Assembly (NCBI GenBank): GCA_963754315.1
Contig: CAVWFS010000019.1
Coordinates: 768,001-832,000, forward strand
Length of the DNA: 64,000 nt
Direction of reading: 5' to 3'
From: an uncultured Candidatus Rokubacteria bacterium
GTDB lineage: Bacteria; Methylomirabilota; Methylomirabilia; Rokubacteriales; CSP1-6
A program made the position numbers and the translations under genes. The notes under the pieces are model-generated. The model saw only the letters and a list, made by a program, of their open reading frames with translations, was not told where the DNA came from and did no database searches. Below, in pieces: positions 10,666 to 28,997 of this stretch (positions are counted from its first letter, which is position 1; every line of letters begins with the position of its first letter).

Positions 10666-11586
10666 GTGCGCGTTCGCGTCCTGGGCTCGGCAGCTGGTGG
10701 AGGTTTTCCACAGTGGAACTGCGGCTGTCCTAACTGTCGCGGTCTCCGTGCTGGAACCTTGCGAGCCGCGCCGCGCACCCAAGAATCCGTCGCGCTGAGT
10801 CCTGACGGGAAGGCCTGGTTTCTCCTCAACGCCTCGCCCGAGATTCGCCAGCAGATCGAGGGCTTCCCAGAGCTGCATCCTCGTGGTCCGCGGCACTGTC
10901 CCATCGAGGCCATCGTGCTCACCAACGGCGATCTCGACCACACCTTGGGCCTGCTCTCCTTGCGCGAGTCCCATCCGCTCGTCGTCTATGCCACCGCGAG
11001 CGTCCAACGCGGCTTTACCGAGGGCAACGTCCTCTACCGGACCCTTCAGCGATTTCCCGGCCAGATCACGTGGCGTGTCCTTGCCCTCGGGCGCGAAGTC
11101 GAACTGGCGGGTGCAGACGGTCCGGGGTACGGTCTGTACGTGGAAGCCGTGACGGTACCGGGCAAACCTCCCGTTCATCTCGAGGGGCTCTTCCCTCCCG
11201 GTCCCGAGGACAACATCGGGCTCAAGATTCGGGCAGAGTCAACGAGAACCCGCCTGGCCTATTTCCCGGCCGCAGGGCGCATCACGCCCGCGGTCGCTGC
11301 CGCCCTCGAGGCCGCCGCTTGCCTGTTCTTCGACGGGACATTCTGGTCGAGCGACGAGCTGCCCGCCCTGGGCCTGGGAAGCAAGCGCGCCGAGGACATG
11401 GCGCACCTGCCGGTGGGCGGGACGGAGGGCAGCCTCGTGGCGCTGGCCGGGTTGCGCGCGGCCCGTCGAATCTACATTCACCTCAACAACACGAACCCAC
11501 TCCTGCGCGACGATTCTCCCGAGCGAAGGGCCGCGGAGGAGGCCGGTTGGGAGATCGCCTACGATGCCATGGAACTGACGCTGTGA
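10666..11586 (+). CDS. pqqB: PQQ biosynthesis protein PqqB
   Basis: LGSAAGGGFPQWNCGCPNC, RTQES, LNASP, HLNNTNP. Confidence 0.96.
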   Translation: MRVRVLGSAAGGGFPQWNCGCPNCRGLRAGTLRAAPRTQESVALSPDGKAWFLLNASPEIRQQIEGFPELHPRGPRHCPIEAIVLTNGDLDHTLGLLSLRESHPLVVYATASVQRGFTEGNVLYRTLQRFPGQITWRVLALGREVELAGADGPGYGLYVEAVTVPGKPPVHLEGLFPPGPEDNIGLKIRAESTRTRLAYFPAAGRITPAVAAALEAAACLFFDGTFWSSDELPALGLGSKRAEDMAHLPVGGTEGSLVALAGLRAARRIYIHLNNTNPLLRDDSPERRAAEEAGWEIAYDAMELTL

Positions 11587-12323
11587 CGGGGAAAACGGTG
11601 CGAGCGCCGCTCGCCCAGGAGGATTTCATCGGATGGATCCGCCGCGAGGGCGAGCAGCGCTACCATGATCACCATCGTTACCACGTGCTGATGCACGAGG
11701 GCGCTCTCACCAAGCTTCAGCTCCAGCAGTGGGTACTGAACCGCTACTACTATCAGACCCGGATCCCCATCAAGGACGCCGTCATCGTGGCCAAGTCCGA
11801 GGACCCGGACTTCCGTCGGATGTGGGTGCGTCGCATCCGTGATCACGACGGTGACGAGGCCGGCCAGGGCGGGCTCGAGCTGTGGTTGCGGCTGGCGGAG
11901 GGCGTGGGGCTCGATCGCGAGGAGGTGGCCAGCTGCCGCTCCGTCCTGCCCGGGGTGCGCTTCGCCTGCGACGCCTATGTCGAGCTTGTCCGCGAACGCA
12001 GTTTGCTGGAAGCCGTGGCCTCGTCGCTGACCGAGTTTTTCGCTCCCGACCTGATGTCCAAGCGTGTGCTGGCCTGGGAGAAGCACTACCCATGGGTGAG
12101 CCCCGACATGCTCGCCTACTTCCGCTCGCGCGTGCCGCGTGCCCGCCGCGATTCCGAGGAGGCCATCGAGTTCGTGGTGCGCCACGCCACCACCTATGCG
12201 CTTCAGGAGCGCTGCGTGGCTGCCCTCATCCGCAAGACGGAGATCCTCTGGCACCTCCTGGACTGCACCTATGCCGCCTATATCGAGCCGGGCTGGGGTG
12301 TGGTCGGGCCCCGTGCCACGTGA
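11583..12323 (+). CDS. pqqC: Pyrroloquinoline-quinone synthase PqqC
   Basis: RYHDHH, WVLNRYYYQTRIPIKD, RIRDHDG, VRFACDAY, SSLTE; GTG overlaps the pqqB stop. Confidence 0.95.
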   Translation: MTGKTVRAPLAQEDFIGWIRREGEQRYHDHHRYHVLMHEGALTKLQLQQWVLNRYYYQTRIPIKDAVIVAKSEDPDFRRMWVRRIRDHDGDEAGQGGLELWLRLAEGVGLDREEVASCRSVLPGVRFACDAYVELVRERSLLEAVASSLTEFFAPDLMSKRVLAWEKHYPWVSPDMLAYFRSRVPRARRDSEEAIEFVVRHATTYALQERCVAALIRKTEILWHLLDCTYAAYIEPGWGVVGPRAT

Positions 12324-12598
12324 TTTCGCCCGAGAGTCGGCTCCGGCTGGCAGCCAAGGCGCGCTTGCGTTTCGACCGCAAATCGTCGCGCTACATGCTG
12401 CTCTATCCAGAGCGCGGTCTGGTCCTCAACCCTACCGCGGCCGACGTTCTCCAGCTGTGCACGGGGGAGCGCACGGTGGGCGCCATCGTGGACGAGCTGG
12501 CCCGCAAGTACGGTCAGGAGCCACCCGCGGTGGAGCGTCAGGTCATGGACTTTCTGCGGACGATGGCCGACCGAGGCCTCGTGCAGACCGCGCCGTGA
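12320..12598 (+). CDS. pqqD: PqqA-binding chaperone PqqD
   Basis: RLRFDR...LLYPERGLVLNPTA..VLQLCTGERTV..IVDEL. Confidence 0.93.
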   Translation: MISPESRLRLAAKARLRFDRKSSRYMLLYPERGLVLNPTAADVLQLCTGERTVGAIVDELARKYGQEPPAVERQVMDFLRTMADRGLVQTAP

Positions 12599-13719
12599 GC
12601 GAACCGTATCGTCCGTACACCTTGGTGGCCGAGCTGACCTACCGCTGCCCGCTTCGCTGTGTGTATTGTTCCAACCCGCTGGACTATGCGAGCCACCAGC
12701 CCGAGGTGGACACCGTGACCTGGCTGCGTGTCTTCGACGAGGCCGAAGACCTGGGAGTGGTCCAGCTCAACCTCAGTGGAGGTGAACCGCTCGTCCGCGA
12801 CGATCTGGAGGTCCTGGTGGAGCGAGCGCGCCGCCTCGATCTCTACACCAACCTCATCACCAGTGGCATTCCCCTCACGCGCGACCGGCTGGAGCGTCTG
12901 CGCGATCTCGGGCTCGACAATGTGCAGATCTCCATCCAGGACGTGACGGCAGCCGCGTCCGATCGGATCGCGGGCACACGATCCTTCGAGCGCAAGCTGC
13001 AGGCGGCCGCCTGGGTCAAGGAGCTGGGGTTCCCCCTCACCCTCAACACCGTCCTTCATCGGGAGAACCTTGCCCAGACGGCCGCAGTCATCGCGCTCGC
13101 CGAGCGTCTCGGCGCCGATCGTCTGGAGCTGGCCAACACGCAGTATCTCGGCTGGGCGCTGGCCAACCGGGAGGGGCTCCTGCCCACCCGTGAGCAGCTC
13201 GAGCGCGCACGGGGGGTTGCGGCGGACGCGCGTCGCCGGCTGCGGGGCCGCATGGAAGTGCTCTTCGTCACTCCCGACTACTTCTCCGATCTACCGAAAG
13301 CCTGCGTGGACGGCTGGGGACGGCGGTTCATCGTGGTGAGCCCCGACGGCCTCGCCCTCCCCTGCCATGCGGCCCACACCATGCCCGATCTGAGCTTCGA
13401 GAACGTGAAGGATCGCTCGCTCGGCGATATCTGGCGCGACTCGCCGGGCTTCAACGCCTTCCGCGGCGAGGCCTGGATGCCCGAACCGTGCCGGAGCTGT
13501 GATCGGCGTGGCATCGACTTCGGCGGCTGCCGCTGTCAGGCCTTCCACCTGACCGGGCGCGCCACAGCCACCGATCCTGCGTGTCACCTCTCGCCTGACC
13601 ATGGCCTCATCGAGCACGCTCGCACCGTTGCCGCCGAGGGTGTCCCCGCACCGTTCGTGTATCGGACGGCCAAGGCTGGGGAGGCACCATCGTCCGGGCC
13701 TCGGGGCACCACACCTTGA
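12595..13719 (+). CDS. pqqE: Radical SAM peptide cyclase PqqE
   Basis: AELTYRCPLRCVYCSNP, SGGEP, SPASM cysteines, DFGGCRCQAF. Confidence 0.96.
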   Translation: MSEPYRPYTLVAELTYRCPLRCVYCSNPLDYASHQPEVDTVTWLRVFDEAEDLGVVQLNLSGGEPLVRDDLEVLVERARRLDLYTNLITSGIPLTRDRLERLRDLGLDNVQISIQDVTAAASDRIAGTRSFERKLQAAAWVKELGFPLTLNTVLHRENLAQTAAVIALAERLGADRLELANTQYLGWALANREGLLPTREQLERARGVAADARRRLRGRMEVLFVTPDYFSDLPKACVDGWGRRFIVVSPDGLALPCHAAHTMPDLSFENVKDRSLGDIWRDSPGFNAFRGEAWMPEPCRSCDRRGIDFGGCRCQAFHLTGRATATDPACHLSPDHGLIEHARTVAAEGVPAPFVYRTAKAGEAPSSGPRGTTP

Positions 13720-13745
13720 CAAACCGGGATGACGAGACGTATCGT
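13716..13745 (+). promoter_or_regulatory. Putative sigma70 promoter for the PQQ dehydrogenase, overlapping the pqqE stop
   Basis: TTGACA-N18-TATCGT. Confidence 0.4.
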
Positions 13746-13815
13746 CCGGCCCGCGTAGGCCTTGCGTGGTCGGAAAATCACCAATAGTGATCGATCCTCA
13801 AAGGGGAGGCTCACC

Positions 13816-15012
13816 ATGCGGCGTATCGTCGTGACATCGCTCGCGGTGGCACTCGTAGTCGGGCTCGCGCTCGCTCAACTGGCTCCCGCCCAGCAGCCTC
13901 CACCGGCGTGGAAGCAGGGCCAGCCGGCCGAAATGGCCAACTCACCGCTCGCCCCCGTTCCTCTGCCGCCGGCGCCGACCCCGGCCAACCAGATCAAGGT
14001 CGACCAAATCAAGCTGCCGCCCGGCTTCACGATCAGCGTCTGGGCCGACGGAATCCCGAATGCCCGGGAGATGGCCTGGGGCTCGAAGGGCACCTTGTTC
14101 CTGGGCAGCAGGGTCGCAGGCAACGTCTACGCGGTAGTCGACCGGGGCGGCCGACGCGAAGTCAAGGTCATCGCCAAAGGACTGACCCAGCCGAGCGGAG
14201 TGGCCTTCCGGGACGGGGCGCTCTACGTGGCCGAGATTCCTCGCCTTCTGAAGTTCGAGAACATCGAGGCCAACCTGGACAATCCGCCCGCGCCCAAAGT
14301 CGTGTACACGTATCCGCCGGACGCGCATCATAACTGGCGCTATCTAGCCTTTGGGCCGGATGGAAAGCTCTACTTCAACATGGGGGCGCCCTGCAACATC
14401 TGCATTCCGCCAGCCACCCATGCCAACATCTCGCGTGTCAACCCCGACGGGTCTGGTTTTGAGTACTTCGCCTATGGTGTCCGCAACAGCGTCGGCTTCG
14501 ACTTCCACCCCGTGACCAAGGAGCTGTACTTCACGAACCATGGGCGTGACTGGATGGGCGACGATGTGCCCAACGACACCTTGCATCACGCCCCACGGGC
14601 CGGTCTGCACTTCGGTTACCCCTACTGCCACCAGGGCGACATTCTCGACCCCGACTTCGGGGTCGGTCGCTCGTGCAGCGAATTCGCTCCTCCGTTGCTC
14701 AAGCTTGGACCGCACGTGGCGGGCATGGGCATCAAGTTCTACACGGGGAGCATGTTTCCGGCGCAGTATCGCAACGTCGCCTTCGTGGCGCTCAAAGGCT
14801 CCTGGAACCGCACCCAGAAGAGCGGCTACAAGGTGATGACAGTCGATCTCAAGCCCGGCATGGCCCCGAAGTATGAGACCTTTGCCGATGGGTTCACGGA
14901 CGGGACCACGGTGTTCGGCCGGCCGACATACATCGAGTGGATGCCCGACGGCTCGATGCTCCTATCCGACGACTACCTCGGCGCTATCTTCCGCATCGCC
15001 TACCAGCGCTGA
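13816..15012 (+). CDS. Exported PQQ-dependent sugar dehydrogenase (glucose/sorbosone dehydrogenase family)
   Basis: Signal peptide; LPPGFTISVWA, FGPDGKLY..GAPCN, GVRNSVG, GSWNR, GRP...SDD. Confidence 0.88.
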   Translation: MRRIVVTSLAVALVVGLALAQLAPAQQPPPAWKQGQPAEMANSPLAPVPLPPAPTPANQIKVDQIKLPPGFTISVWADGIPNAREMAWGSKGTLFLGSRVAGNVYAVVDRGGRREVKVIAKGLTQPSGVAFRDGALYVAEIPRLLKFENIEANLDNPPAPKVVYTYPPDAHHNWRYLAFGPDGKLYFNMGAPCNICIPPATHANISRVNPDGSGFEYFAYGVRNSVGFDFHPVTKELYFTNHGRDWMGDDVPNDTLHHAPRAGLHFGYPYCHQGDILDPDFGVGRSCSEFAPPLLKLGPHVAGMGIKFYTGSMFPAQYRNVAFVALKGSWNRTQKSGYKVMTVDLKPGMAPKYETFADGFTDGTTVFGRPTYIEWMPDGSMLLSDDYLGAIFRIAYQR

Positions 15013-15105
15013 TTCCGGTCTTCCTGTAGCGGTCCCGGCGGGATGGTTCCGGCCGGGGCCGCACGGGAAGCCGCTCAGTCTTCCCTGCTTTCATTCACGG
15101 AAATC

Positions 15106-15717
15106 ATGAGACGTGTGGTGGCGCGTCGCCGGCGGGTAGCCGTTGCGACTCTCGTCGTGGCCCTCGGGGCGGCAAGCGCGAACGTTTCCGGCGCCGATCT
15201 GAATGCCGCGCGAAAGAAGGCAGAGCCCTGCGGGGCGTGCCACGGGGCCGATGGCAATGGCGCCACCCCCGGTACGCCTTCCCTGGCTGGGATGCCCACC
15301 TTCTACACGCACTGGCAGCTGATCATGTATCGGGATGGACGTCGCCGCGACCCGCAGATGTCACCCTTTGCCGTTAACCTCAGCGACGCGGACATGGCCG
15401 ATCTCGCCGCCTATTACGCCGCCCAGCCTCCACGGGCCCGACCCGCTCGGATCGACGCGGCGCGAGCGGCAGCCGGACAGCCCATCGCCCAGCAGCAAAA
15501 CTGCACCTCGTGCCACGGGCCCCGGCTCATGGGCCAGCAGGGGGTCCCCCGGCTGGCGGGACAGGATTTCGACTACCTCCTCAAGCGGCTGCGCGGGTAC
15601 AAGTCCAAGACCACCAGCGATCTGGACGGGATGATGACGATGGTGGCCCAGCCGCTGACCGAGGCGGACATCGAGAATCTCGTGCATTTCATGGCCAGCC
15701 TCGCTACCGCGCCCTGA
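15106..15717 (+). CDS. Di-heme cytochrome c4-like protein
   Basis: Signal peptide; CGACH and CTSCH heme motifs, PxLAG repeats. Confidence 0.9.
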   Translation: MRRVVARRRRVAVATLVVALGAASANVSGADLNAARKKAEPCGACHGADGNGATPGTPSLAGMPTFYTHWQLIMYRDGRRRDPQMSPFAVNLSDADMADLAAYYAAQPPRARPARIDAARAAAGQPIAQQQNCTSCHGPRLMGQQGVPRLAGQDFDYLLKRLRGYKSKTTSDLDGMMTMVAQPLTEADIENLVHFMASLATAP

Positions 15718-15748: not shown

Positions 15749-16444
15749 TCAGGACACGCCAAGATAGCGCGACTTCACCTCTTCGTTGGCCAGCAGTTCG
15801 GCCGGGGTGGAGGAGTGCACGACGCGGCCCCGGCTGATGACGTGCACCCGATCGGCCACCGCCAGTCCCAGAGCCAGGTTCTGTTCCACAAGCAGGATCG
15901 GGAGGCCCTGCCGCTTCAGCTCTCCGATGACCTGGCCGACCTGGCGCACCAGCAACGGCGCCAGTCCCTCCGTGGGCTCGTCCATGAGGATCAGCTCCGG
16001 ATTCGTCATGAGGGCGCGGCCGATGGCCAGCATCTGCTGCTCACCTCCCGAGAGCGTGTTGCCGCCGTGACCCTCGCGCTCGCGCAAGCGGGGGAACAAC
16101 TCGTACACGCTCTCGAGAGTCCAGCGTCCCGAACGACCCGTACGTGCCACGAGCAGATTCTCCCGGACGGAGAGTGAAGGGAAGATACGGCGCCCCTGGG
16201 GAACCAGAGCCATCCCGCGCTCGACTGCCCGGAAAGGAGGCCAGCGCGTGATGTCGTCGCCTTTGAAGCACACCCGGCCGCGGCGAGGTGGGGTGAACCC
16301 GATGATCGAGCGGACGAGCGTGGTCTTCCCTACGCCGTTACGTCCCAGGATAGTCAGCACCTCACCAGAGTTCAGCGTGAGAGATATTCCCTGCAGCACG
16401 TGGCTGGTGCCGTAGTACGTATGGACGTCCTCGACCTCAAGCAC
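15749..16444 (-). CDS. livF: Branched-chain amino acid ABC transporter ATP-binding protein
   Basis: GRNGVGKTT, LSGGEQQMLAIGRAL, DEPTEGLAP, VEQN. Confidence 0.92.
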   Translation of the reverse strand: MLEVEDVHTYYGTSHVLQGISLTLNSGEVLTILGRNGVGKTTLVRSIIGFTPPRRGRVCFKGDDITRWPPFRAVERGMALVPQGRRIFPSLSVRENLLVARTGRSGRWTLESVYELFPRLREREGHGGNTLSGGEQQMLAIGRALMTNPELILMDEPTEGLAPLLVRQVGQVIGELKRQGLPILLVEQNLALGLAVADRVHVISRGRVVHSSTPAELLANEEVKSRYLGVS

Positions 16445-17195
16445 CGAGATAAATCTCGCGGACCTGGGGATTCGCCTTGATCTCGTCCCGCAACCCGTCG
16501 GCGATGACCCGCCCGAAGTGCAGCACGGTCACGTGCTGGCTGACCTCGAGGGCGATATCCATGTCGTGCTCGATCATGAGTACCGTGATGCCAGGATCCA
16601 GCCCCTTCAGCAGGTCGGCCATCAGGCGCGACTCGGCGGGCGAGAGCCCCGCTGTCGGCTCGTCCAGCAGGAGCACGCGCGGCTGCCCGGCCAGGGCCAG
16701 CGCGATCTCTAGCTGACGCTGCTCGCCGTGGGAGAGGTTCTTGACCATCGCCGTGGAGGTATGGCCGAGGCCCACCATCTCGAGGACGTCATGCGAGCGC
16801 TCGTGGAGGGCGGGCAGGGAGGCCAGGGGCCGCCACATCGCGAACTTGGCGGGGGTGAGCGCCTGCACGGCGAGCAGGCAGTTTTCCATCACGGAGAGGT
16901 CGGGAAACAGGTTGGTGACCTGAAAGGTCCGCGTGAGCCCGAGGGCAGCCCGGCGATGAGCGGGCGCGTCAGTGACATCGCGGCCGAACAGCAAGATCGA
17001 GCCCGACGTCACCGCAAGGGCGCCGCTGATCAGGTTGAAGAGCGTGGTCTTGCCTGCTCCGTTCGGCCCGATGAGCGCGCGGCGCTCGCCTCGTTGCACG
17101 GCGAGGGTCACCCCGTCAACAGCTCGCAAGCCGCCGAACGCCCTGGAAACCCCGCGCAACTCGAGCGCCAGCATACGTTGCGAAGGCGGTGTCAT
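16437..17195 (-). CDS. livG: Branched-chain amino acid ABC transporter ATP-binding protein
   Basis: FGGLRAV, GPNGAGKTT, RTFQ, IEHDM. Confidence 0.92.
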   Translation of the reverse strand: MTPPSQRMLALELRGVSRAFGGLRAVDGVTLAVQRGERRALIGPNGAGKTTLFNLISGALAVTSGSILLFGRDVTDAPAHRRAALGLTRTFQVTNLFPDLSVMENCLLAVQALTPAKFAMWRPLASLPALHERSHDVLEMVGLGHTSTAMVKNLSHGEQRQLEIALALAGQPRVLLLDEPTAGLSPAESRLMADLLKGLDPGITVLMIEHDMDIALEVSQHVTVLHFGRVIADGLRDEIKANPQVREIYLGA

Positions 17196-17270
17196 GCGAG
17201 GTCGAGTGCGGCCCGCAAACCCTCCTCGATTCGAGCCAAGACCTCAAGGGGAAGTGCGCGGACACGCACT

Positions 17271-18185
17271 TCAGCGGCCCCGGAGGGCGCCCACGATGCC
17301 GCGGGGGGCGAAGAGGGTCACCCCGATGTAGACGGCACCGAGGATAAGCAGCCAGCGCTTGGTGTAGACGCTCACGAAGTTCTTGAGGAAGACGATGACG
17401 GCAGCGCCAAGAGCAGGTCCGGCCAGGGTGCCGGGCCCCCCAAGGGCGACCATGAGGAGCGTCTCCACCGAGGTCAGGAGCTGCACGTCGGTGGGGGCCA
17501 CGAAGCCGTTGAAATAGGCCCACAGCACGCCCGCGAACCCGGCCACCGTCCCCGACAGCACGAAGGCCACGTACTTGTGAAGCCACACGTTGTAGCCGAG
17601 AGCGCGCATGCGGGACTCGCTCTCCCGGATGCCCTTGAGGCCAAGGCCGAAGGGAGAGCTCACCAGCAATCCGAGGAGGGCCCAGGCCACGGTGGCGGCC
17701 ACCAGGGCGAGATAGAAGAAGGGCACCGGAGAGGAGAAGTCGAGGGCGCCCAGCGCGGGGCGGGGAACGCCGGAGACACCATTGTCGCCCTTGGTGAGGG
17801 ACGTCCACCGAAAGGCGAGGCCCCATACGACCATCCCGAGGGCAAGCGTGATCATCAGGAAGTATGTCCCCGTCGCACGGATGGCCACCAGCCCAAAGAC
17901 GGCGGCGGCGACGGCGGCGAGCGCCACACCCGTCAGCACACATCCAGCGAAACCGACCCCACGCTCGGTGGTGAGGAGCGCGACGGCATAGGCCCCTACC
18001 CCGAAGTACGCGGAGTGCCCAAGGGAGGGAAGCCCGGTATAGCCCAGGAGCACGTCGAGGCTCATGGCCAGGATCGCCACGATCAGGGTCTGGGTCAGCA
18101 ACGTCAGCGGATAGGAAGGCAACCCCGGCGCCGAGATGGCAAGAATCGCGACGATGAGGGTGCCCAGGAGCGCCTTGTGTCTCAT
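17271..18185 (-). CDS. livM: Branched-chain amino acid ABC transporter permease
   Basis: GYTGLPSLGHSAYFGVGAY, LTKGDNG, IRESE. Confidence 0.9.
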   Translation of the reverse strand: MRHKALLGTLIVAILAISAPGLPSYPLTLLTQTLIVAILAMSLDVLLGYTGLPSLGHSAYFGVGAYAVALLTTERGVGFAGCVLTGVALAAVAAAVFGLVAIRATGTYFLMITLALGMVVWGLAFRWTSLTKGDNGVSGVPRPALGALDFSSPVPFFYLALVAATVAWALLGLLVSSPFGLGLKGIRESESRMRALGYNVWLHKYVAFVLSGTVAGFAGVLWAYFNGFVAPTDVQLLTSVETLLMVALGGPGTLAGPALGAAVIVFLKNFVSVYTKRWLLILGAVYIGVTLFAPRGIVGALRGR

Positions 18186-19042
18186 GCTCGACCGAAAAGC
18201 CCGGTCGGCCTGAGCGCGAGGATCACGGCCATCGGCGCGAACAGGGTGAAGTAGGACAGCTCGGGAAAGAGCGCCTTGCCGAAGTTGTCGAGGAGCCCGA
18301 CCAGCAGGCTCCCTGCCATAGCTCCCGGCAAGCTCCCCAGGCCCCCGACGATCACCACGACGAAGGCATATGGCAGCATCTCGAAGTCCGCCCCGGGATA
18401 GACGCCGAGGAAGCCTCCTCCGATCACCCCGCCCAGGGCGGCCAGGGCGGCTCCCAGTCCGAAGATGCCGAGCGATACTGTGGGCACTCGAATGCCCACC
18501 CCCTGGGCCATCTCGGCGTCGTCGACGGCCGCGCGGATCATGGCACCCACCCGGGTCCGATCGAGGAGCAGCCAGAGCCCGATGCCGATCGCGACCGCCA
18601 CCACCACCATGAAGATCCGATACACGGGGAAAACAAAGGCCCCCGCGCGGAGGACGCCGCTGAGCACGGAGGGAGTCGGGATCGTGTAGGGGTCGCCGCC
18701 CCAAATCAGCAGCGCCAGGTCCTGGAAGATGAGAGCGAAGCCGATCGTCATCAGGACCTGCCCGAGCGTCTTGCCCTTGAGCCGACGGAGAAAGAGCCGT
18801 TCCATGCCCATCCCGATGAGCGCGATGGCCACCGCCCCGACGGCCAGGGCCAGCCAGAAGCTCGCCGTCTTCCACACCACGGACAGCCCGACGTACCCGC
18901 CCAACATGAAGTATGAGCCGTGCGACAGATTGACGATCCGCATGACGCCGAAGATCAGGGAGAGACCGCTCGCGAGCAGGAAGAGCAGCGCCCCGTAGGA
19001 GATGCCGTTGAATGCCTGCGTGACCCAGAACTCGATGGTCAC
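18182..19042 (-). CDS. livH: Branched-chain amino acid ABC transporter permease
   Basis: GLSLIFGVMRIVNLSHG, VVIVGGLGS, LRPTGLFG; GTG start inferred. Confidence 0.9.
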   Translation of the reverse strand: MTIEFWVTQAFNGISYGALLFLLASGLSLIFGVMRIVNLSHGSYFMLGGYVGLSVVWKTASFWLALAVGAVAIALIGMGMERLFLRRLKGKTLGQVLMTIGFALIFQDLALLIWGGDPYTIPTPSVLSGVLRAGAFVFPVYRIFMVVVAVAIGIGLWLLLDRTRVGAMIRAAVDDAEMAQGVGIRVPTVSLGIFGLGAALAALGGVIGGGFLGVYPGADFEMLPYAFVVVIVGGLGSLPGAMAGSLLVGLLDNFGKALFPELSYFTLFAPMAVILALRPTGLFGRA

Positions 19043-19155
19043 CGGCGGAAATTCTACTATGGATGGCCAGGACCAGGGCCCGCCATGGGGCGTAATACTC
19101 CCGGAGTGGTGGGACATGCCGTATAGTGCGGGTGGCCGTGGCCAAGGAGGGGACC

Positions 19156-20028: not shown

Positions 20029-20070
20029 CCACCCTTTACTCCCCACGTCCGTCCCACGGGAGGTCCAATC

Positions 20071-20544
20071 ATGAACGGCGCTCGCTTCGGCCAGCCGGCA
20101 CCCGATTTCGCACTTCCCGCCACGAGCCAACCCGAGATCACGCTGTCGTCTTTCAAGGGCAAGTCCGACGTCGTTCTCGTCTTCTATTGCTACGACTGGG
20201 GCACCATCTGAACGCCGGAGCTCACCGACCTGGTCAAGGTCGAGCCGCGCATCCGAGAGCGCGGGGCCACGGTGCTGGCCATCAGCGCTGATAGCACGCT
20301 ATCGCACGCGGCCTGGCACAAGGCGCACAACTTTCCCTTCCCGCTCCTGAGCGACATTCACCGGACGGTAATCCGCGCGTACGGTGTGCTGGACGAGGCA
20401 CGCAACGTGGCCTGGCGTTCGACGTTCATCGTGGACCGTGACGGCGTCCTGCGCTGGGGTCAGGCGGGCGACCGGCACATGGTACGGGACGGCGCGGAGA
20501 TCCTTCGCGTGCTCGGTATCATCGCGAGCGTCAGGGGCGCGTAG
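20071..20544 (+). CDS. Selenocysteine-containing peroxiredoxin (AhpC/TSA, AhpE/BCP-like), Sec47 (157 aa)
   Basis: ATG 20071 after GGGAGG; APDFALP...VVLVFYCYDWGTI-U(TGA 20209-20211)-TPEL...VLAISAD...FPLLSD...YGV...RSTFIVDRDG is one continuous frame. Confidence 0.88.
20220..20245 (+). promoter_or_regulatory. Putative bacterial SECIS element
   Basis: GCT-CAC-CGACCT-[GGTCA]-AGGTCG-AGC hairpin; first loop G is 21 nt after the UGA. Confidence 0.7.
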
Positions 20545-27749: not shown

Positions 27750-28997
27750 CTAGGGCATCGCCGCGATCAGATCGACCTCGACCAGCGCGCCAGGGACCAG
27801 CAGCCCGGTGGTCCCCACCGTGGTGCGGGGTGGGGGCGTCGGAAAGAACTCCTTCCACACCTCGTCGAAGTCGTTGAAGCAGTCGAGATCCACCATGAAC
27901 ACCTGAGCCTTGACCACGTTAGCCAACGACGTCCCGGCCGCTTCGAACGTCCTGGCATAGTTGTCCAGGATATAGCGGGTCTGTCGCTTGATATCCGAGC
28001 CGTAGAACGGAAACGCGGGATCCGTGCGGGCTTCGGCGGGGATGCCCGTCTTGAAATCGCTGGCGAGATGCCCAGCCGTGAACACCAGGTTGTCCACGCG
28101 CACGGCCGGTGTGTAGTGGGCGAGGGGCTGCGGAATACTGGAAACGGCGATGGGGTGCCGCGGCGCCGACGGGAGGGCGGCAATGAGGTCGATCTCCACA
28201 AGTGTGTCCCGCACGAGCAGCCCGGTGGTCCCCACCGTCGTCCGCGGCGGGGGGGTCGGGAAGAACTCCCTCCACACCTCGTCAAAGCCATTGAAGTCCA
28301 TCAGATCCGTCAGGAACACCTGACCTTTCACCACGTTCGCCAGGGAGGTACCCGCGGCGGCAAGGGTCTTGGCGAGATTGTTCAAGATATAGCGCGTCTG
28401 CTTCTTGATAGCGGATCCGTAGTACGGGAACGCGGGATCGACGCGAGCCTCCGGCGGCACCCCACGCTCGAAATCGCTCGCCAGCTGCCCCGCCGCGAAC
28501 ACCAGGTTACCCACCCGCACCGCCTCGGCGTAGTGAGCGAGCGGCCGGGGAGCGGAAGACATCACGCGCTCGGCGGGGCTGCTCGGCATACTGGCGATGA
28601 GGTCGATCTCCACGAGCGTGTCCCGCACCAGCAGCCCGGTGGTCCCCACCGTCGTCCGCGGCGGGGGGGTCGGGAAGAACTCTCTCCACACTTCGTCGAA
28701 GCCATTGAAGTTCATGAGGTCAGTGTGAAAAACCTGGGCCTTGACCACATGCTCCAGGGACGTGCCCGCCGCCTGAAACGTCAGCGCCAGGTTCTTTAGG
28801 ACATAGCGCGTCTGCTTCTTGATAGCGGATCCGTAGTACGGAAAGGCTGGATCGACCAGGGCTTCACGGGGCACGCCTGTCCGGTAGTCGCTGGCGATCT
28901 GGCCCGCGGCAAACACCAATGGCGCGGCGCGGGCAGCCGGGGTGTAGTGGGCCAGCGGCTTGGGGATATCGGGCACGTCGATGCGTTCTCTCGGCAC
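27750..28997 (-). CDS. Triple-domain Rid (RidA/YjgF/UK114) family protein
   Basis: Three ~138-aa repeats, each with PLAHY, AGxxASD, QTRY, VVKxQVF, PPPRTTV, LVE(I/V)D. Confidence 0.9.
   Translation of the reverse strand: MPRERIDVPDIPKPLAHYTPAARAAPLVFAAGQIASDYRTGVPREALVDPAFPYYGSAIKKQTRYVLKNLALTFQAAGTSLEHVVKAQVFHTDLMNFNGFDEVWREFFPTPPPRTTVGTTGLLVRDTLVEIDLIASMPSSPAERVMSSAPRPLAHYAEAVRVGNLVFAAGQLASDFERGVPPEARVDPAFPYYGSAIKKQTRYILNNLAKTLAAAGTSLANVVKGQVFLTDLMDFNGFDEVWREFFPTPPPRTTVGTTGLLVRDTLVEIDLIAALPSAPRHPIAVSSIPQPLAHYTPAVRVDNLVFTAGHLASDFKTGIPAEARTDPAFPFYGSDIKRQTRYILDNYARTFEAAGTSLANVVKAQVFMVDLDCFNDFDEVWKEFFPTPPPRTTVGTTGLLVPGALVEVDLIAAMP

Follow-up and report, generated by a model that had tools for sequence, protein, structure and literature searches.

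The 64,000-nucleotide window (the whole stretch of DNA analysed) encodes, at 20071-20544 on the + strand, a 157-residue protein of the AhpE-like peroxiredoxin fold (Pfam AhpC-TSA), in which an in-frame TGA very likely inserts selenocysteine (Sec47) at the peroxidatic position and in which the catalytic motif has Cys40 in place of Pro and Gly44 in place of Thr/Ser. The same Cys-x6-Sec arrangement defines a strongly conserved clade in the Methylomirabilota. The best reading of its chemistry, which we hold tentatively and put somewhat short of an even chance, is that of a Sec peroxidase in which Cys40 would resolve Sec47 as an intramolecular selenenylsulfide.

A probable selenocysteine codon within the gene

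Under translation table 11 the only open reading frame listed for this gene is its 90-residue tail (20272-20544), as the earlier note had remarked. With TGA read as Sec, the frame extends from ATG 20071 to TAG 20542-20544 with a single internal TGA (20209-20211), and it is preceded by a Shine-Dalgarno-like GGAGG (20059-20063, + strand) at a spacing of 7 nt. The product matches PF00578 (AhpC/TSA) with 125.7 bits, against a cut-off of 26. Its best sequence match in the PDB is Mycobacterium tuberculosis AhpE (FFPLAFTGICQGEL), with which the motif FYCYDWGTIUTPEL aligns without gaps, such that Cys40 (codon TGC, 20188-20190) corresponds to Pro38, Gly44 (20200-20202) to Thr42, Sec47 to Cys45, Glu50 to Glu48 and Arg116 (20416-20418), the distal catalytic Arg of peroxiredoxins, to Arg116. 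The sequence and this alignment bear out both the ribosome-binding site and the frame, crossing the TGA exactly at the peroxidatic position, that the earlier note had proposed.

The case for Sec had been made to depend on the presence of selABCD in the genome and of the TGA in independent sequence, and both were found. All four genes are present, with a tRNA-Sec (selC) and with selA, selB and selD each exceeding their cut-offs; over the part that was read, the SelD of this genome carries Cys rather than Sec. The TGA is carried by contigs from public runs of two different studies: that from DNA run X1, which may be the source sample, spans 20081-20363 with no differences, TGA included, and that from RNA-library run X15 spans 20083-20362 with three differences, none of them in the TGA. 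Assembly error as the origin of the TGA is ruled out by these two contigs.

The hairpin that the earlier note described after the TGA is located at 20226-20242 (+ strand; CGACCT-GGTCA-AGGTCG, with a 6-bp stem and a 5-nt loop), its first base 14 nt past the TGA and its loop 20 nt after it. Bacterial SECIS models call for a G in the loop and a set spacing from the UGA, and here the second loop base is an invariant G. Taken alone, the hairpin folds no better than shuffled sequences (z about -1.1). Comparison of related sequences indicates that this putative SECIS element is conserved: five of the six stem pairs are kept in 107/107 distinct segments and the sixth in 106/107, and synonymous divergence is 0.28 within the hairpin versus 0.45-0.46 on both flanks. 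At one stem pair we observed A-U 52 times, G-U 27 times, G-C 28 times and A-C never, where about 14 A-C would be expected were the two sides independent, a figure calculated by hand and inflated by the relatedness of the sequences.

That the TGA is a true stop, in a pseudogene or split gene, or is decoded as Trp or Cys, is very improbable. Public gene calls do give 90-108-residue fragments or read-throughs with Trp at the TGA, and two database proteins (P0010 and P0140) have Leu at the site; but purifying selection acts on both halves of the gene, before and after the TGA, and the TGA and hairpin are kept down to approximately 58% identity. Nor does the rest of the genome favour such decoding, as TGA serves as an ordinary stop, ending selA, selD and trxB, five genes that we checked use TGG for Trp, and the sel machinery is complete. 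The recoding that the earlier note proposed is supported by the sel genes, the conserved TGA and the hairpin, from which we infer the insertion of Sec itself.

In a search of this genome with the clade profile, 13 of 20 peroxiredoxin/thioredoxin-like genes were found to have an in-frame TGA at a catalytic position, which points to a very large selenoproteome. A high selenoprotein content has been reported for the Methylomirabilota (PMC13188914).

Conservation and distribution of the clade

Our first set drew on both genomes and metagenomes and comprised 128 loci (all 48 found, plus the best 80 of 323). The pattern C-x3-G-x2-TGA is present in all 125 that cover the site, the other three being partial, and 50 further loci, some of them from the same genomes, agree. 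Removal of duplicates and short segments left 136 distinct homologous segments, in every one of which Cys40, Gly44, TGA47, Glu50 and Arg116 are conserved, with Cys40 encoded by TGC in 113 and by TGT in 23. These data, together with the AhpE alignment, confirm the substitutions of Pro by Cys40 and of Thr/Ser by Gly44 with retention of the distal Arg, and support the view put forward in the earlier note of an unusual, conserved peroxiredoxin subtype. Its statement that Cys40 is the only Cys stands for the window protein, but not for the clade, where position 78 is Cys in 83, Ser in 50 and Ala in 3 of the 136 homologues. The residue two positions ahead of Sec is Gly (66), Ser (49), Asn (14), Arg (5) or Thr (2), so the hydroxyl lost with Thr/Ser has not been shifted there.

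A profile search of the phylum (Methylomirabilota/Rokubacteria) found the gene in 111 of 251 genomes, as a single copy in each; within the family of the window's genome, 107 of 158 genomes carry it. All but one of the 111 genome matches have the internal TGA, the remaining one being a fragment that misses the site; occurrence beyond the phylum rests on one record with a Nitrospinota title. In public protein sets this gene of an abundant soil lineage is cut to a 90-residue fragment or misread.

We observed no form with Cys in place of Sec among the 120 best protein matches, most of which are 90-108-residue fragments, nor among the best 150 profile matches over 1.84 billion representatives. The latter matches include 144 domains with Cys at the catalytic column; when 28 thioredoxin-type domains (CxxC) and an unrelated case with Cys and Gly are set aside, 115 remain, of which 114 have Thr/Ser at -3 and 102 have Pro at -7. 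In a quick tree built from 86 rows, none of them a named AhpE, the clade comes out as monophyletic (SH-aLRT 100, with a stem branch of 0.69), and neither its sister group nor its deep placement is supported.

Predicted structure and proposed mechanism

An AlphaFold2 model made with Cys for Sec (pLDDT 88) has the peroxiredoxin fold, with AhpE nearest among known structures and with identities of 32-36% to the protein in the structural matches. In the model helix α2 begins after residue 47, and residues 41-50 have a mean pLDDT of 71, whereas in a canonical control model the helix begins two residues ahead of the Cys, with a pLDDT of 96. The late start and low pLDDT fit a predicted loosening of the active site loop; the low values may also reflect the narrower alignment (72% versus 35% column identity).

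In the mechanism that we favour, a cytoplasmic enzyme would use Sec47 to attack a hydroperoxide, with Arg116 retained, and Cys40 would then capture the selenenic acid to give the Cys40-Sec47 selenenylsulfide, a bond that would be reduced in turn by thioredoxin or a small thiol; trxA and trxB are both present in the genome. A selenol ionised without help would make Thr and Pro dispensable, and Gly44 would loosen the first turn of helix α2, such that Cys40 could reach Sec47. That peroxide is the substrate and thioredoxin the reductant is our inference. The case for Cys40 and Sec47 being close to each other draws on AhpE (PMC7231847, PMC4965862) and on the shielding role described for the peroxiredoxin Pro (bioRxiv 10.64898/2025.12.11.693838). 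Five positions of the resolving Cys are recognised in peroxiredoxins, that of Cys40 not being among those described in PMC4749874. In a Leishmania peroxiredoxin only Ser was reported to be able to stand in for Thr (PMC7231847), and Gly44 may therefore mean that peroxidase activity is weak.

A different residue, Cys78, is also a possible partner for Sec47, which would count against Cys40 as the resolver. Cys78 aligns five residues ahead of the α3 Cys of Xanthomonas BCP, which we take to be the resolving Cys of that enzyme; since it is present in only the 83 homologues noted above and absent from the window protein, however, it is too variable to be a universal partner.

The loss of both peroxide-positioning residues raises the prospect that Cys40 and Sec47 form a redox centre that acts on a non-peroxide substrate, in the manner of the deiodinases, with a disulfide, persulfide or sulfane sulfur, a sulfoxide, a halogenated or metalloid compound, or selenium itself as candidates. 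We regard this as a serious, if somewhat unlikely, alternative. The clade has extra invariant residues (Arg98, Arg111, Asn112, Trp129, Gly130, Gln131, Gly133, Arg135, Met137 and Arg146) that are absent in its canonical relatives and whose number suggests a specific ligand or partner surface. The long, fully supported stem branch points the same way, as does the presence in the genome of canonical Sec- and Cys-peroxiredoxins with Pro and Thr, and deiodinases provide a parallel in being re-reduced through a selenenylsulfide/disulfide cascade (PMC11592359).

It is also conceivable, although rather unlikely, that the protein acts as a 1-Sec peroxidase and that no bond forms between Cys40 and selenium during turnover. 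The SH of Cys40 would then take over from the Thr hydroxyl, donating a hydrogen bond or shuttling a proton, or would only protect against over-oxidation, and an external thiol (or Cys78, in homologues that have it) would do the recycling. The closest solved relative, AhpE, is itself of the 1-Cys type and relies on mycothiol/mycoredoxin or H2S for its reduction (PMC8113037), and a hydrogen bond links its Thr42 to the sulfur of Cys45 (PMC4965862), which an SH could also provide. A second group of Sec-peroxiredoxins (below), moreover, functions, if at all, without Cys at -7. Yet position 40 is never Ser or Thr in the 136 segments, though a hydroxyl would suit hydrogen bonding, whereas position 78, by contrast, swaps freely between Cys, Ser and Ala.

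Other Sec-peroxiredoxins in these genomes

Six Sec-peroxiredoxin genes are present in this genome, Pro being kept in two of the six and Thr in four. We found the second group in 12 of 81 family genomes; its member in this genome (C18:618044-618536, - strand; L185) has, in this assembly, a frameshift just before the motif, and genome G166 has the gene intact. In the 12 full-motif copies from other genomes, position -7 is Gly in 11 and Leu in one, and never Pro or Cys, and position -3 is Ala in four, Val in three, Ser in two and Asn, Gly or His in the remainder. As this group is without Pro, mostly without Thr/Ser and without Cys at -7, the loss of Pro and Thr needs no Cys partner. Such loss accompanies Sec in at least two groups, and Cys40 is specific to the C-x6-U clade; the loss may reflect a general relaxation allowed by selenium. 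A more ambitious proposal, which we consider unlikely, is that the Methylomirabilota dropped Pro and Thr more than once thanks to selenium and that the present clade then gained a C-x6-U centre, irreversible to sulfur, for a non-peroxide substrate.

The second group (L185, L190-L202) has the motif FYGADF-x-P-[TV]-U, a distal Arg and apparent signal peptides, and often adjoins a TlpA/ResA-like CxxC gene. Two further paralogues in the window's genome (L186, C15:46646-47116, - strand; L187, C19:617828-618229, + strand) have Sec, with Ile for Pro and with Thr kept, and also have apparent signal peptides; a UxxC TlpA-like gene comes after the C19 copy. At L193, L195 and L197, Sec-peroxiredoxins occur in tandem pairs, with the motif of one copy shorter by one residue (FYVGESPTU).

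Gene neighbourhood

The PuuE-like polysaccharide-deacetylase-family gene (PF01522; 19126-20028, + strand), which the earlier note placed in an apparent operon with the selenoprotein gene, ends 42 nt upstream of the selenoprotein gene and scores 133 bits with TIGR03212, below its cut-off of 424.6. As a pointer to function it is not supported: among 131 loci flanked by 400 nt or more, only 7 have such a gene upstream, and these are all close relatives. The two genes may be co-transcribed in this genus, but the PuuE-like gene is not a partner in general. The remaining neighbours differ by lineage, and the downstream gene, for an AMP-binding enzyme, is convergent. Downstream of the gene in one lineage (L008, L012, L015 and related loci) come genes for a MoxR AAA ATPase, a DUF58 protein and a transglutaminase-like protein.

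Elsewhere in the window, a gene of the glucose/sorbosone dehydrogenase family and one for a dihaem cytochrome c stand in one row (11070-15717) with genes that, from a look at their sequences, we take to be PqqC/D/E-like; branched-chain-amino-acid-type ABC transporter genes (15749-19126, - strand) are divergent from the PuuE-like gene; and a protein encoded at 27750-28997 (- strand) consists of three tandem repeats, which are presumably RidA/YjgF-like.

Comparison with known families

Peroxiredoxins are taken to be defined by the motif Pro-x3-Thr/Ser-x2-Cys. Pxxx(T/S)xxC is reported in 99.3% of peroxiredoxin sequences, and the AhpE form as PxAF(T/S)xxC (PMC5302317); the window protein instead has CYDWGTIU. 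It shares with the superfamily the AhpC/TSA fold, the predicted Sec at the peroxidatic position and the distal Arg, but differs in having Cys at -7 and Gly at -3 throughout the clade. Because these two defining features fail, we do not class it as a canonical peroxiredoxin, as AhpE or as PrxU. AhpE itself (Rv2238c; PDB 1XXU, 4X0X and 5ID2), a 1-Cys enzyme, has Cys45, Pro38 and Thr42 where the clade has Sec, Cys and Gly. The known Sec-peroxiredoxins (PF00578, TxxU; PrxU, NF040737) have in common with the clade a peroxidatic Sec, an in-frame UGA and a downstream hairpin, but are described with a highly conserved PxxxTxxU (PMC13188914), as opposed to CxxxGxxU, and the window protein scores 80.7 bits with NF040737, below the cut-off of 270.

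Table 1 of a 2026 review of 119 prokaryotic selenoprotein families (PMC13188914) lists TxxU, UxxC/UxxU, UxxS and CxxU peroxiredoxin-like forms, and we did not find C-x6-U among the families in that table. A description of the clade was likewise not found in the titles and abstracts of the papers that literature searches listed, a body of text that mostly excludes subscription journals; BSepDB may file such sequences as 'Prx'.

Iodothyronine deiodinases share with the clade a Sec in a thioredoxin/peroxiredoxin-like fold and, with their own selenenylsulfide re-reduction (PMC11592359), are a precedent for non-peroxide chemistry. The clade is most likely similar in action to the atypical 2-Cys peroxiredoxins (PrxQ/BCP, Tpx and Prx5), with which it would share intramolecular resolution. 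Their resolving Cys is described in helix α2, α3 or α5 (PMC4749874), whereas the candidate Cys here is seven residues ahead of Sec, at the Pro position. If Cys40 does resolve Sec47, it would add a sixth to the recognised resolving positions, with a redox motif that the current selenoprotein catalogue lacks. A widespread, single-copy and strongly conserved clade minus two motif residues is a natural experiment on the role of each. Since no Cys form was found in the matches above and a second Sec group has the same loss, it becomes possible to test directly why some enzymes retain selenium, a U47C variant being predicted to be inactive unless Thr and Pro are restored.
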